Source: an uncultured bacterium
Lineage (GTDB): Bacteria > Schekmanbacteria > GWA2-38-11 > J061
Reading direction: 5' to 3'
Assembly: GCA_964549305.1 (NCBI GenBank)
Contig: CAZJVM010000058.1
Coordinates: 1 to 15,667 of the forward strand
Length of the DNA: 15,667 nt
In this document: piece after piece, positions 6,101 through 11,932 of the stretch
Position numbering within the stretch: position 1 is the first letter of the stretch
Layout of the letters: each line of letters begins with the position of its first letter
The notes under the pieces: generated by a model
Told to the model about the DNA's origin: nothing
Database searches by the model: none
What the model saw: the letters and a program-made list of their open reading frames with translations, nothing else
Position numbers and translations under genes: made by a program

Positions 6101-7408
6101 GTGATAAATAAAAGGCTTGAATAATTCCAGCGCCATCATTTTTGGAATACCGCACTGGTTAAGCTTCAGATTGGGACCCACGACAATAACCGACCTCGCG
6201 GAGTAATCCACGCGTTTTCCGAGAAGATTCTGCCTGAATCTTCCCTGTTTTCCCTTGAGCATATCGCTGAGGGATTTCAAAGGCCTCTTATTCTGGCCTT
6301 TCAGCGCGCGACCGCGCTTGCTGTTGTCAAAGAGGGCGTCCACAGCTTCCTGAAGCATTCTTTTCTCGTTTCTTATTATAACTTCAGGCGCTTCCAGTTC
6401 TCTTAGTCTTTTAAGACGGTTATTTCTGTTGATAACCCTTCTGTACAGGTCATTGAGGTCCGAAGTGGCAAATCTTCCACCCTGAAGAGGCACTAAAGGC
6501 CTGAGATCGGGCGGAATTACGGGAATAACCTCGAGAATCATCCATTCGGGGTGATTTCCGGATTTTCTTAACGCCTCTACGATTTTAAGGCGCTTTAGAA
6601 GATTGCGCTTTGTCTGAACGGATTTAACCGTTTTTAAATTGACACGAAGCTCCTTTGAAAGCTCTTCAAGGTCCAGGTCAATGAGCATCTTTTTTATCGA
6701 TTCAGCTCCTATGCCTGCAGCGAAATTTTGCGGAGGCTCATAATATTGCTGTCTGTACTCCTCAACGGTCAAACCGTGCTCTTTTAAATGCTCCTCGATA
6801 TAAGGTCCGGTTATCTGCATTTCAAATCCACATTCCTGACAAACTTCAAGTCCTGCGTCATTAATCCATCTACCCTCCATTATGAGATTGTAACGCTCTT
6901 CGGTGAGAAGCTCGTAATCTTTGAAGGGGTTGGGTACTTTCTTGCTGTTTTCCTCCTCGCCTCTGTTGACGATAACAAACTGTTCAAAATAGAGAATCTT
7001 CTCAAGGTTGCGCAATGACATATTCAAAAGACCGCCTATGCGACTCGGTATTCCCTTGAAAAACCATGTATGGGCTACCGGTGAAGCAAGTTCGATATGC
7101 CCCATTCTTTCTCTGCGCACCTTTGCCTGAATTACCTCGACACCGCACTTTTCGCAGGTAATACCCCTGTGCTTCATTCTCTTGTACTTGCCGCAGTTAC
7201 ATTCCCAGTCTTTTGTGGGGCCGAATATCTTGGCACAAAACAAACCGTCGCGCTCAGGCTTGAATGTCCTGTAATTGATGGTTTCCGGTTTTGTCACTTC
7301 TCCGTAAGACCATGACCTGATCTTTTCAGGAGATGCCAGCGATATCTTTATGGAATTAAATTTAACCGGGTCCTTTGCCTCGTTAAAATGAGAAATAAAA
7401 TCACTCAA
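3176..7408 (-). CDS. rpoC: DNA-directed RNA polymerase subunit beta' (1410 aa, TTG start)
   Basis: Catalytic NADFDGD, N-terminal Zn site (CNC...CEKC), bridge helix [17 protein letters not shown], and trigger loop TMRTFH with an SI3/beta'-i6-type insertion. SD AAGGAG lies 8 nt before the TTG. Confidence 0.99.
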
Positions 7409-7432: not shown

Positions 7433-10400
7433 TTAATCGTTCTGAATCAGTTCAACATCCAGACCAAGACTCTGCAGTTCTTTTACAAGAACGTTGAAAG
7501 ACTCGGGCAATCCCGGTGCAGGAGGATTCACGCCCCTTACTATTGCCTCATACATTGAAGTCCTGCCGGAAATATCGTCTGATTTAACTGTGAGCATTTC
7601 CTGCAGTATATTAGCGGCACCGTAAGCTTCCAATGCCCATACTTCCATTTCTCCCAGTCTTTGACCTCCAAACTGCGATTTTCCGCCAAGAGGCTGTTGC
7701 GTAACAAGAGAGTAAGGACCTATTGAACGGGCATGGAGTTTATCGTCAACCAGATGGTGCAGTTTGTTCATGTATATATATCCAACGGTTACTTCCTGAG
7801 CAAAAGATTCTCCAGTTTTTCCGTCATATAGCCGGTGTTTCCCTGAAACAGGAAGACCCGCTTCTCCGAGAAGTCTTTCGATATCCTCAATATGCGCTCC
7901 GTCGAAAACCGGTGTCGACATTGGTATTCCACCTTCGAGCTCGAAGACATAATCTTTGAGCTCTTTCGATGTAAGAGAATCGATATACTTTGAGATATCC
8001 CGGTTATTGAACAACGATTTAATCTGCTCGCGAATCACGGGATAATCCTTGACAAACGCTTCATCCAGTCCGAGAGACTTTGCCTGCATAATGGTATCTT
8101 CGGTGAGGACTTCATCCTTTTTCTGAAGAACCATATCGGTCGTTCCTATCATAAGGTCTTCGGCAAGTTCCCATCCCTTGCAGTCATCGATATTTTTTTT
8201 AATCTGTTTTATGGATGCTTCATCTACGATTTTCTGAATCTGTTCTCCGAGTTTTTTTGCGGCCCAACCGAGATGGGTTTCAAGTATCTGTCCCAGGTTC
8301 ATACGGGAAGGAACACCCAAAGGATTCAACACTATATCAACCGGCGTGCCGTCAGGAAGATAGGGCATATCTTCTTCCGGAACAATCCTTGACACAACAC
8401 CTTTGTTTCCATGTCTTCCCGCCATCTTATCGCCAACGGAAAGCTTCCTTTCTATAGCCACATAAACCCTCACAAGCTTGATTACGCCCGGAGGAAGTTC
8501 ATCTCCCCTTTGAAGTCTTGATATTCTTTTATCCCTTATGGTTTTGAGAATCTCGATCTGGTCCTTTGCGTCTTCCTCGATTGCTTCAATCTTTTTTCTC
8601 ACATCAGATTCTTTAATTTTTATGGAAGAATAATTTTCCGGACTGATTTTTCTCAGGTTTCCGGGAGTAACTTTATCCCCCTTTTCAAAAATAACTCCTC
8701 TACTTCCCGTGCTTGTCACCTTCTCTTTTACAACGCAGTCGATGAGAAGTTTAAATATCTTTCTGTTGTTATCTTCTTTAATAATCCTTTTTTCATCCTC
8801 AAAATCTTTTTCAATCTTATTGATTTCCTCATCTTCGATAAGCTTGCTTCTTTCATCCTTATCCACGCCGCGCCTTGAAAAAACCTTTACATCCGTCACA
8901 ATTCCCGACGCACCCGGAGGCATTTTAAGAGAGGTATCTTTCACATCCCTCGCTTTTTCGCCAAAGATTGCCCTGAGAAGTTTTTCCTCGGGAGAAAGCT
9001 GAGATTCACCCTTCGGAGTAATCTTGCCCACGAGGATATCTCCCGCTTTCACCTTTGCGCCTATGTAAACAATTCCGCTTTCATCAAGATTGTTAAGAGC
9101 ACCTTCACCGATATTGGGAATATCTCTTGTTACCTCTTCGGCGCCGAATTTTGTATCCCTTGCTTCAAGCTCAAATCTTTCGATATGGATTGAAGTGAAA
9201 AGATCATCCTTCACGACTTTTTCGCTGATAAGTATCGAATCTTCAAAGTTATAACCCTGCCACGGCATAAACGCCACAAGTACATTATTTCCAAGGGCAA
9301 GGTCTCCCCTGTCAGTTGAGGGACCGTCGGCAACAACATCGCCCTTTTTCACATACTGGCCCTTTTTTACGATTGGCTTCTGATTAATCGTGGTATTCTG
9401 ATTTGACCGTTCAAATTTTCTCAGGGTGTATATATCAACATTTGAGTCAAGAGATAATCTTTCCCCGTTTTCTTCGGAAATTCTTATTACTATTCTTGAA
9501 CCGGAAACACTTTCCACAATTCCCGAATGGCGAGCAACGACAACTGCGCCGCATTCCTTCGCCACAATGGCTTCCATTCCGGTTCCCACAATGGGCGCGC
9601 CCGGTTTTACAAGGGGCACACTCTGTCTCTGCATGTTGGAACCCATAAGAGCTCGGTTTGCGTCATCGTGTTCGAGAAAAGGAATCATAGAGCTTGCAAC
9701 ACTAACGAGCTGTTTCGGAGACACATCCATATAATCAATCTGTTCAGGTGACGCGAGAATGAAGTCTCCCTCTTTTCTCGACCTTATACGGTCACTTTCG
9801 AATTCGCCGTTTTCTTTTATTGGTGCGTTTGCCTGGGCTATTACATACTTGTCTTCAATGTCCGCGGGAAGATACTCAACGGTGGATGTCACCTTTCCCT
9901 TTACTACCTTTCTGTAGGGGGTTTCTATGAAACCGAATTCATTTACGCGCGCGTAAGTGCTCAACGACGCAATCAGACCGATATTGGGACCTTCCGGCGT
10001 TTCCACCGGACATATGCGCCCGTAATGGCTGGGCTGAACGTCTCTGACATCAAAACCAGCCCTTTCACGCGTCAGACCGCCGGGACCCAGAGCGGAAAGT
10101 CTACGCTTATGAGTAAGTTCCGAAAGAGGATTTGTCTGGTCCATAAACTGAGAAAGCTGGCTTGAACCGAAAAATTCCTTAATTACCGACGTAACAGGTT
10201 TTGAGTTGATAAGGTCAGTGGGCATAAGAGTTTCCGCGTCCTGCAGATTCATTCTCATTCTTTCTCTTATTGCCCGTTCCAGCCTTACAAGCCCCATTCT
10301 GAACTGATTCTCCAAAAGCTCGCCTACGGTGCGCACTCTTCTGTTTCCAAGATGGTCAATATCATCTATGGAGCCTATTCCGTTTTTGAGCTCGAGAAGG

Positions 10401-11932
10401 TGCCTTACGACAGCAAGTACATCCTCTTTCGTGAGTGTGCTTGTCTCGATTGGAACATCCAGGTCAAGCTTGTTGTTAAGTTTCATGCGACCAACTTTCG
10501 AGAGGTCATACCGCTTTGCATCGAAAAAGAGTGATTCAAAAAAGTTTTTCGCAGTCTCTTCAGTCGGCGGATCTCCCGGCCTGAGGCGCTTGTAGATTTC
10601 TTCCTGAGCTTCCTGCGGGGTATGCAGGAGATCAACACCAAGCGTTTTGCTCATTGCAATATCATTATAGGATTCCAATCCGGTAATAGTCTCAAATGAT
10701 TTTATTTTGGCTTCTATAAACTTCTCAAGCACCTCTTCAGTTATTTCCTGATTGCATTCGGCTATAACCTCGCCTGTTTCCCTGTTAATTATATCCTTTG
10801 CAAGATGCTGGTTGTAAAGACCCTCCCTTTTTACCTGAAACTCTTTTATTCCGAGGTCTTTGAGTTCCTGATAAATTCTTTTTGAGATCTTCTTATTTTC
10901 TTTTGCGACAATCGCTTTCTTTCCCGGTGCCTTGATTTCCACCGATGCTTTTGAGCCGATAATGGATTTTTGAACTTTTTTCAAAAAAGTCTTGTTCTCA
11001 TGGTCAATTTTGTAGGTGTCAAACTGGTAGAATTCTTTGAGAATTTCCTCAGAAGAATATCCAAGAGCTTTAAGAAAAACAGTCGCGGGAAGTTTTCTTT
11101 TCTTGTCTATTTTTACGTGAAGAATGTCTTTGTAGTCAAACTCAAAATCGAGCCAGGAACCTCTGTAGGGAATAATCCTGCAGGAAAAAAGCACCATTCC
11201 GCTTGCGTGGACTTTCCCCTCGTCGTGAGTAAAAAAGGCACCCGGCGAACGATGCATCTGACTTACGATAACCCTTTCAGTGCCGTTAATAATAAACGTG
11301 CCTTTGTCGCCAAGACGAATCTTCCCTTTGTCATTTTCACGAATATCCGACATCAAAGGGAATTCGCCGAGATACACTTCCTGCTCTTTTATATCCCTGA
11401 TAGTTTTTTTTGCCGCATCCTCAGGATCAATATCATACATAATGAGCTGGATTTTAACCTTCAGTGGAATTGCAAAAGTCTTTCCTTTGCTCAAACTCTC
11501 AGGAACGGTGTATTTCGGTTTCAAAGTAACTCTTGAATTACAATCAGGACACTTCTTGTAAAAAAGAGGCTTCTTGCATTCAGGACATTTAAATTTTTTT
11601 AACTCGGAAATTCCGCTCGCTTTACAGCTTTTGCACTCCCATTCATACCTGGAATGAATTCCCTTCATAGCTCCGCACTTGCACTCCCATTGTCCAAGCT
11701 CGTAGCTTACGAATTCAAGGGAAATCTTTTCCGTATAATCCTTTATGGGGAATACTTCCCTGAAAACCTTCTCAAGGCCTATAGTCTCGTTTCTGCTTTC
11801 GGGAAGATAGTCAATTTGCAGAAAATCCTCGAAGGATAGTCTTTGCAAATCAATAAGTGAAGGTACTTCCATCACCTTGTATAGTTTCGAAAAATCTTTC
11901 CTTAAAACTCGGGGCAGACCCTCGCTTTTCAT
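7433..11932 (-). CDS. rpoB: DNA-directed RNA polymerase subunit beta (1499 aa)
   Basis: Rif region [58 protein letters not shown]. Insertions of beta-i4, beta-i9 and beta-i11 type are present. SD GAGGAG. Confidence 0.99.

Follow-up and report, generated by a model that had tools for sequence, protein, structure and literature searches.

A putative Ros/MucR-type zinc finger inserted in the clamp-toe of the RNA polymerase beta' subunit of Schekmanbacteria

A 15,667-nucleotide contig (CAZJVM010000058.1, assembly GCA_964549305.1; hereafter the window, meaning this whole stretch) of an uncultured bacterium of the phylum Schekmanbacteria carries rpoC, which encodes the beta' subunit of RNA polymerase (RNAP). 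The encoded protein contains an in-frame insert of 45-49 residues (aa 179-227) with the pattern C190-x2-C193-x13-H207-x3-H211. The insert is located in the beta' clamp-toe at the clamp tip, which is a known insertion hot spot and a sigma-contact site. Profile comparisons make it very probable that the insert is a true homologue of the Ros/MucR finger domain. Sequence comparison also indicates that the C2H2 pattern is not a product of chance, as it is kept across all five variants and the insert profile gives significant database matches. The best explanation is that the finger was inserted in the ancestor of the phylum and then kept under purifying selection. The finger would probably contact protein rather than nucleic acid, and identity as a MucR finger and contact with protein, taken together, form the reading that we slightly favour.

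To define the insert, the N-terminal 400 residues of 29 RpoC sequences were aligned with MAFFT, 26 from other phyla and three from Schekmanbacteria. The latter come from the window genome (G000), a genome of the same genus (G001), and a genome of another family in the same order (G003). A block of approximately 45 columns is filled only by these three sequences and is absent in all 26 RpoCs of other phyla, where about 10 residues separate the LTEEEY-type helix from the F-x-A-x-MGAE motif. The initial annotation of this DNA had given this distance as about nine residues in E. coli-type beta', and its insert peptide and the numbering of C190, C193, H207, and H211 were confirmed in the rpoC translation. 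It had placed the finger at positions 6740-6874. These coordinates do cover aa 179-223, whereas the whole module extends to aa 227 and occupies 6728-6874. The clamp-toe is 86 residues long here, versus 32-35 (44 in one case) among the 26 other sequences.

Schekmanbacteria are represented by five species genomes in our collection, and the insert is present in all three in which rpoC was found. No rpoC was detected in G002 (98% complete, 20 contigs) or G004 (70%) by a whole-protein search and a search with Pfam PF04997, the latter of which recovered the gene from G003 and all 14 control genomes. The probable reason is that assembly or binning left a gap around rpoBC, and the insert status of these two genomes is not counted as negative. 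An insert-only profile was also used to scan 401 genomes, 396 of them outside the phylum. Matches of RpoC length were obtained in the three phylum genomes only, along with four weak matches (E 9e-4 to 6e-3) in open reading frames (ORFs) of 366-607 aa.

Further variants were obtained from larger collections. A metagenome scan yielded a fourth variant, L047, which is 60% identical within the insert and has H-x4-H in place of H-x3-H. When 5.8 billion proteins were searched by word index with the insert profile, there were five matches, all of them RpoC; one of these, P0139, is a new, fifth variant, and the same-genus RpoC among them carries the NCBI label Candidatus Schekmanbacteria bacterium. 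A word-index search with residues 160-240 recovered the query alone among 24 candidates. All five RpoC variants keep G-(R/K)-W, C-x2-C-x13-H-x3/4-H, and EYR at insert identities of 48-75%; conservation of the four ligands among related RpoCs, which had been suggested as a check in the initial annotation, thus holds in five of five. In a four-row alignment that spans the two families of the phylum, 19 of 48 positions, ligands included, are unchanged. The only matches from a pattern scan of the genome collection were in a 253-255-aa ORF of Geomonas, which we take to be TtcA-like and which has the string IEEHLKEH in common with the insert. These matches were rejected as chance.

Pfam ROS_MUCR (PF05443) was the top family for a 67-residue fragment (21.2 bits, E 3.1e-4, profile positions 66-97 of 123) and the top match for three of three inserts (best E 2.6e-4); the score was 16.5 bits for the whole RpoC and 18.7-19.3 bits in genome scans. 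A profile of three inserts was then compared with 1.84 billion representative proteins, resulting in 125 matches at E<=1e-3 and 10 at E<=1e-10, and the RpoC catalytic motif was found in none of the 125. Pfam scanning of 38 of these matches assigned 35 to ROS_MUCR at E<=0.01, including 27 above the cut-off; P0007, P0035, and P0126 were the three without a ROS_MUCR match. The single-finger protein P0054 (85 aa) was matched at E 1.5e-5 against the whole library, and with 30.5 bits passes the Pfam cut-off itself. In an 18-row alignment with stand-alone fingers, the insert lines up over a span that starts at the first strand and ends with the proline behind helix two, with C24, C27, H45, and Y52 (alignment numbering) invariant and H41 nearly so. 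A 13-residue Cys-to-His spacer is common among these stand-alone relatives.

Because these matches had been picked with the insert's own profile, an independent set of ROS_MUCR proteins was collected by scanning the 401 genomes with the Pfam model, which gave 14 proteins over the cut-off in 11 genomes. Comparison of four inserts with these 14 proteins by hhalign gave a probability of 96.0% and an E-value of 4.4e-9 over 36 columns. The aligned span begins at the Cys knuckle and takes in the whole of the second helix, and a gap of three residues falls within the spacer. The initial annotation had proposed that a Ros/MucR-type finger was grafted into the beta' clamp and that a profile comparison with ROS_MUCR be made; the Pfam, database, and hhalign results all speak for that proposal. 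A classical eukaryote-type C2H2 finger (PF00096) was also considered and rejected, as no zf-C2H2 family was found for the fragment at E<=10 and as the module goes beyond the classical beta-beta-alpha fold (about 30 residues, 12-residue spacer) by one predicted strand and one predicted helix. Matches to eukaryotic fingers in a PDB profile search were weak. In Ros, the zinc ligands are C79, C82, H92, and H97, which corresponds to C-x2-C-x9-H-x4-H, and H96 can substitute for the last of these to give x3 (PMC9779718). The spacing of C-x2-C-x9-H-x3-H ascribed to Ros in the initial annotation therefore applies to the substituted form, and x4 is the spacing of the usual ligands.

Another way to obtain such a sequence is local duplication of the native LTEEEY helix, with chance Cys and His residues and a convergent likeness to MucR, as the initial annotation had cautioned. 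The native LLTEERY and the LTVEEYR of the finger do look alike, and phmmer aligns the second helix of the finger to the native helix of Protein Data Bank (PDB) beta' chains. Two hidden Markov models (HMMs) were used to separate these origins, one for the native helix (25 insert-free RpoCs, as one of the 26 did not fit the extraction pattern) and one for the finger tail (59 stand-alone instances, none of them RpoC). The second copy, from H211 to the NFAA-type residues in four variants, scored 27.6-34.9 bits with the finger-tail HMM versus 1.6-4.6 bits with the native-helix HMM. The first copy, in three complete sequences, scored approximately 0 versus 4.2-13.0 bits. This comparison is somewhat biased, because the RpoC sequence had contributed to the profile by which the stand-alone set was gathered. 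The independent hhalign match, however, covers the hairpin, both helices, and the tail, and there is no DNA-level direct repeat between the two LT-x-EEY segments. From these three results it follows that the second helix came with the module and that the first copy is native, and an origin by duplication is scarcely credible. The helix likeness may, as a speculation, have offered microhomology for the insertion.

AlphaFold2 (AF2) modelling of the 67-residue fragment with the 18-row alignment gave a mean predicted local distance difference test (pLDDT) score of 79.9; besides the native helix, the model contained three short strands and two helices (fragment positions 37-43 and 49-55). For aa 1-400 and 30 RpoC rows, block-mean pLDDT was 87-92 over aa 171-230. 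Strand or bridge residues were predicted at 182, 188-189, and 196-197; the two predicted helices span 203-209 and 215-222. In this model, C190 and C193 occupy the turn that links strand two to strand three, H207 lies inside helix one, and H211 two residues past it. In the Ros fragment Ros87, the Cys residues are likewise on a hairpin turn, and the His residues are within and just past helix 1 (PMC9779718). As far as a prediction can tell, the order beta-beta-beta-alpha-alpha thus matches that of Ros87. A wide structure search placed Ros87 (2jsp) in the top row, with 33% identity over 45 aligned residues, which falls short of a convincing demonstration of fold likeness. The most likely form of the module is a rigid acidic knob, built around a single zinc ion that it would bind. 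The canonical Cys4 zinc-binding domain of beta' is intact, and the finger would therefore add a further zinc site.

The clamp-toe is well described in Escherichia coli, and positions 118-150 of E. coli beta' align to aa 118-150 here (phmmer). Its limits are given as 144-179 (10.1101/726851), V145-K179 (PMC8113463), or 143-180 (PMC7822876). In E. coli, the acidic toe engages a set of basic residues in the sigma70 non-conserved region as the polymerase escapes the promoter. Contact with this region is also made in the closed complex, and the toe docks the activator Crl via basic residues of Crl (10.1101/726851, PMC8113463, PMC7822876). Inserts in the same element are known from other lineages. 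The actinobacterial beta'i1 consists of two long helices that extend from the clamp tip across the cleft entrance and spans approximately 140-230, and beta'i2 of Deinococcus-Thermus has five sandwich-barrel hybrid motifs (SBHM) and a reported role in sigma-A binding (PMC5511352). The statement of the initial annotation that this part of beta' hosts other lineage-specific inserts is therefore correct, and contact with sigma and Crl can be added to it. Msm beta' 107-143 aligns to aa 117-153 here, with Msm 140-143 at aa 150-153, which would place the start of beta'i1 at about aa 150-153, approximately 25 residues before the finger (starting at aa 179). Judged by this alignment, the finger is in the same element as beta'i1 but probably not at the same point. 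A small expansion at aa 152-161, also present in G003 and L047, is nearer to the classical beta'i1/beta'i2 point than the finger is.

The module is strongly acidic. Net charges of -8, -6, -6, and -4 were calculated in the four variants measured, versus +1 to +6 in the 14 independent ROS_MUCR fingers; stand-alone modules have a mean of +1.5 (standard deviation 2.8, n=130), and four of them are at or below -4. The replacement of basic by acidic residues described in the initial annotation was thus reproduced. The first His is preceded by Glu-Glu, or by Asp-Glu in one variant, whereas the MucR consensus is basic or neutral there. The N-terminal oligomerisation domain of MucR (approximately residues 1-55) is absent, with beta' sequence directly adjoining the module on both sides. 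Nor does the insert have the basic C-terminal tail or the DNA-stabilising basic flanks of MucR. The acidic charge, together with the loss of the oligomerisation domain and basic tail, is why the module is read as a protein-docking knob rather than a DNA reader.

It is also conceivable that some contact with nucleic acid was retained and that the finger touches, for example, AT-rich promoter or downstream DNA at the cleft entrance, which would equip the polymerase with a DNA contact of its own. The Ros/MucR family binds DNA (PMC9779718), a DNA-targeting role is expected in the HNH/NUMOD3 homing-endonuclease-like proteins to which several of the nearest stand-alone relatives belong as N-terminal fingers, and the clamp tip is at the cleft entrance, where beta'i1 spans the DNA path (PMC5511352). 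Against this stand the charge difference to the ROS_MUCR fingers, the acidic pair before the first His, and a match restricted to the finger part of the profile, without the basic tail and the oligomerisation domain. Residual contact with nucleic acid is accordingly improbable.

In all five phylum genomes, the non-conserved region of sigma-A comprises approximately 205 residues between regions 1.2 and 2, is rich in Lys and Arg, and has a net charge of +10 to +20. Charge complementarity and the analogy to E. coli suggest this region as the best, though still tentative, candidate for the partner of the finger. The clamp-toe plus finger (aa 138-236) was co-folded with a zinc ion and residues 96-352 of sigma-A, without control runs; the score of 0.00 gave no verdict and counts neither for nor against binding. 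The primary sigma factor of the window genome (rpoD, downstream of dnaG on contig C15) has 589 aa, and a second gene with sigma region 1.2 (a 289-aa frame) is located on contig C68.

A sequence of events can be proposed for the favoured combination of a MucR finger and protein contact. Only the finger core would have been captured, i.e., the beta-hairpin with two Cys, the helix with two His, and the LT-x-EEYR helix. The equipment by which MucR acts as a DNA-binding silencer would have been lost, as the oligomerisation domain and basic flanks are gone and the module is strongly acidic. The resulting knob would enlarge the clamp-toe approximately 2.5-fold at the clamp tip, and its acidic surface may serve to dock the basic non-conserved region of sigma-A, following the E. 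coli precedent. Such docking could tune open-complex formation or promoter escape. The data show the insert itself, with its conservation, homology, predicted topology, location, and charge; that it binds zinc, which partner it has, and how transcription is affected are points that we infer.

More elaborate versions of this mechanism are possible. The finger may form a regulatory element of the core enzyme, in which a zinc- or redox-dependent finger controls docking of the sigma-A non-conserved region, or in which an acidic DNA mimic gates DNA entry at the mouth of the cleft. This is a long shot; if true, promoter opening and escape would be tuned by the core enzyme itself and not by a separate factor. 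A plain zinc or redox switch, in which Cys oxidation or zinc loss unfolds the knob and alters clamp or sigma behaviour under stress, is very improbable. The points in its favour are general ones: Cys2His2 sites can be redox-labile, and the site is on a mobile regulatory element of the polymerase. Ros-type fingers, however, are described as structural sites (PMC9779718).

Several results weigh against the combination of MucR-finger identity and protein contact. With respect to identity, every insert is below the ROS_MUCR gathering cut-off (25.4 bits), and the Cys-to-His spacer has 13 residues versus 9 in Ros. When sequence was compared with the PDB, Ros was found only at E 0.1-0.29, among chance rows, and in a PDB profile search the eukaryotic three-finger protein Gfi-1 outscored Ros (E 0.0024, summed over three fingers). 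Foldseek gave no PDB match at E<=0.001. For the combined AlphaFold and Foldseek check proposed in the initial annotation, the models give a Ros87-like predicted topology and the structure searches no clear verdict. The evidence base is five sequences from one small phylum. With respect to function, charge complementarity and the E. coli analogy make up the entire case for sigma. Moreover, deletion of the clamp-toe leaves basal transcription intact in E. coli (10.1101/726851), and an insert in an element whose deletion is tolerated need not have a function.

A rival view is that the finger is a passenger, derived from a mobile gene (e.g., of the homing-endonuclease type), that sits in a permissive surface loop without contributing to transcription and persists only because a domain that is folded and does no harm is not easily lost. 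Insertions recur in the clamp-toe, and the tolerated E. coli deletion fits this view as well. So do the relatives of the module in phage-type HNH endonucleases and the lack of a stand-alone ROS_MUCR gene in the five phylum genomes, by which the module would be external in origin. On the other hand, invariance of the four ligands and 19 of 48 positions in four rows, with the ligand pattern kept by the fifth variant, speaks against a passenger. The acidity common to all four variants measured also argues against it, as does non-synonymous change well under the saturated synonymous change. The insert, with a GC content equal to that of its flanks, would moreover be an old passenger. We consider it unlikely that the finger is a passenger; by odds, this view ranks first among these rivals, followed by residual nucleic-acid contact and then the redox or zinc switch.

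The proportion of non-synonymous differences (pN) in the insert was 0.14, 0.22, and 0.38 in three comparisons, while synonymous sites were saturated, with a proportion of differences (pS) of at least 0.73; pN and pS are reported here instead of dN/dS because of this saturation. The pN of the insert is approximately double the value for the conserved flank (aa 227-400); relative to the rest of the toe, it ranges from slightly lower to approximately 1.6 times as high. Saturated synonymous sites along with limited pN indicate that the insert is old and constrained, and the lack of a GC difference from the flanks also indicates that it is old.

Regarding the source of the finger, no stand-alone ROS_MUCR gene that could have been the donor was found in the five phylum genomes, where the RpoC inserts are the sole signals. 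Among the closest relatives, P0048, P0091, and P0128 are endonuclease-like proteins of the HNH/NUMOD3 type that carry the finger at the N terminus and match homing/HNH endonucleases in PHROGs. In other close relatives, the finger precedes a conserved C-terminal domain with weak DUF559/REase-type matches. PHROGs gave no match for the insert itself, and a cluster look-up of ten stand-alone relatives returned no informative names. A mobile gene would be a plausible source. The searches also revealed a large and mostly unnamed population of MucR-like fingers (P0004-P0128) that lies beyond the alpha-proteobacterial regulators described so far. Many of these proteins are tandem arrays of 2-11 MucR-like modules, and one such array is a 1352-aa protein that looks eukaryotic.

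The features of rpoC are collected in Table 1. Based on ORF size and order, the minus-strand genes in the window are secE/nusG, rplKAJL, rpoB, rpoC, rpsL, rpsG, and fusA; Pfam scanning covered rpoB and rpoC, and the other names are derived from size and order. The apparent start codon of rpoC is TTG (window position 7408, minus strand), 24 nt beyond the rpoB stop, and the N-terminal peptide of RpoC is kept in G003 and L047. The upstream gene rpoB (7433-11932, minus strand) encodes 1499 aa. Its Pfam domain 6, with 373 profile positions, is stretched across aa 799-1420, and domain 2 matches as two stretches. The beta subunit thus also has sizeable lineage-specific insertions.

Table 1. Features of rpoC and its product in the window
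Feature	Position	Strand	Basis
rpoC, RNA polymerase beta' subunit, 1410 aa	3176..7408	-	ORF translation; Pfam RNA_pol_Rpb1 domains 1-5, E 1e-86 to 4e-21
Equivalent of the beta' clamp-toe, aa 144-229 (E. coli beta' 144-179)	6722..6979	-	alignment to E. coli
Inserted putative Ros/MucR-type zinc-finger module, aa 179-227, predicted beta-beta-beta-alpha-alpha	6728..6874	-	alignment, profiles, AF2
Cys knuckle C190-Q-E-C193, turn between predicted strands 188-189 and 196-197	6830..6841	-	alignments, AF2
His pair H207-x3-H211; H207 within predicted helix 203-209, H211 just beyond	6776..6790	-	alignments, AF2
Native clamp-toe helix (LLTEERY), aa 167-179, directly before the insert	6872..6910	-	native-helix HMM
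Small lineage-specific expansion, aa 152-161, ~8 extra residues	6926..6955	-	gap in 26/26 other-phylum RpoCs (alignment)
Canonical beta' zinc-binding domain, C70/C72/C85/C88, intact	7142..7204	-	sequence, Cys positions

In bacterial RNAP, initiation and pausing are known to be regulated by lineage-specific inserts. With a zinc finger of the regulator type, the clamp-toe would gain a new class of domain at a position where sigma and activators make contact. Such a finger would also show that the MucR domain, usually treated as an alpha-proteobacterial DNA-binding domain, can be put to use in an unrelated candidate phylum as an acidic module, probably one without DNA binding, and the module is small enough for direct testing. 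A 2024 survey of RNAP insertional domains describes beta' inserts of the HABAS, BEAN, and sLC types at seven locations, two of them in beta'-bD2 (PMC11515920). That survey lists the phylum by name a single time, among other groups; its main text contains none of the words zinc, finger, and clamp, and one supplementary file does not mention the phylum. No zinc finger in the beta' clamp-toe was found in the literature searched, and a listing in older insert catalogues is possible.

Compared with known systems, the insert resembles the Ros/MucR finger (PF05443; nuclear magnetic resonance structure of Ros87, 2jsp) in the Cys-x2-Cys on a hairpin, the two His on the next helix, and the second helix with (L/M)T-x-x-EY(R/K). 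Unlike Ros/MucR, it is embedded in an enzyme subunit and is not a free regulator, and it occurs outside the alpha-proteobacteria, where the family is described. Its closest sequence relatives are stand-alone or tandem metagenome fingers (P0054, P0050, P0069, P0091, P0128, etc.), some of them HNH/NUMOD3 or DUF559-type fusions, with single fingers at E ~1e-5. They share G-x-x-C-Q-x-C-G, H-L-K-x-H, and T-x-x-EYR-x-x-Y-x-x-x-P with the insert, and some also the 13-residue spacer. These fingers, however, are free or fused to nucleases and mostly neutral to basic, and none is an RNAP subunit.

Within RNAP, the canonical beta' zinc-binding domain is also a small N-terminal clamp element, but has a universal Cys4 site, another fold and position, and no sequence relationship to the insert. 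The E. coli clamp-toe is the same element with an acidic surface as here, but without an insert. Like the finger, beta'i1 and beta'i2 are in-frame, clade-wide inserts in the same small clamp-tip element. beta'i1 has a conserved charge asymmetry, and is a two-helix hairpin of ~90 residues as opposed to the 49-residue predicted zinc finger (PMC5511352). The predicted finger fold also differs from the known folds of beta' inserts, which include the helical hairpin, SBHM/HABAS, BEAN, and sLC (PMC5511352, PMC11515920). Lineage-specific beta' inserts at this hot spot are thus already known, and what is new here is the putative domain type.

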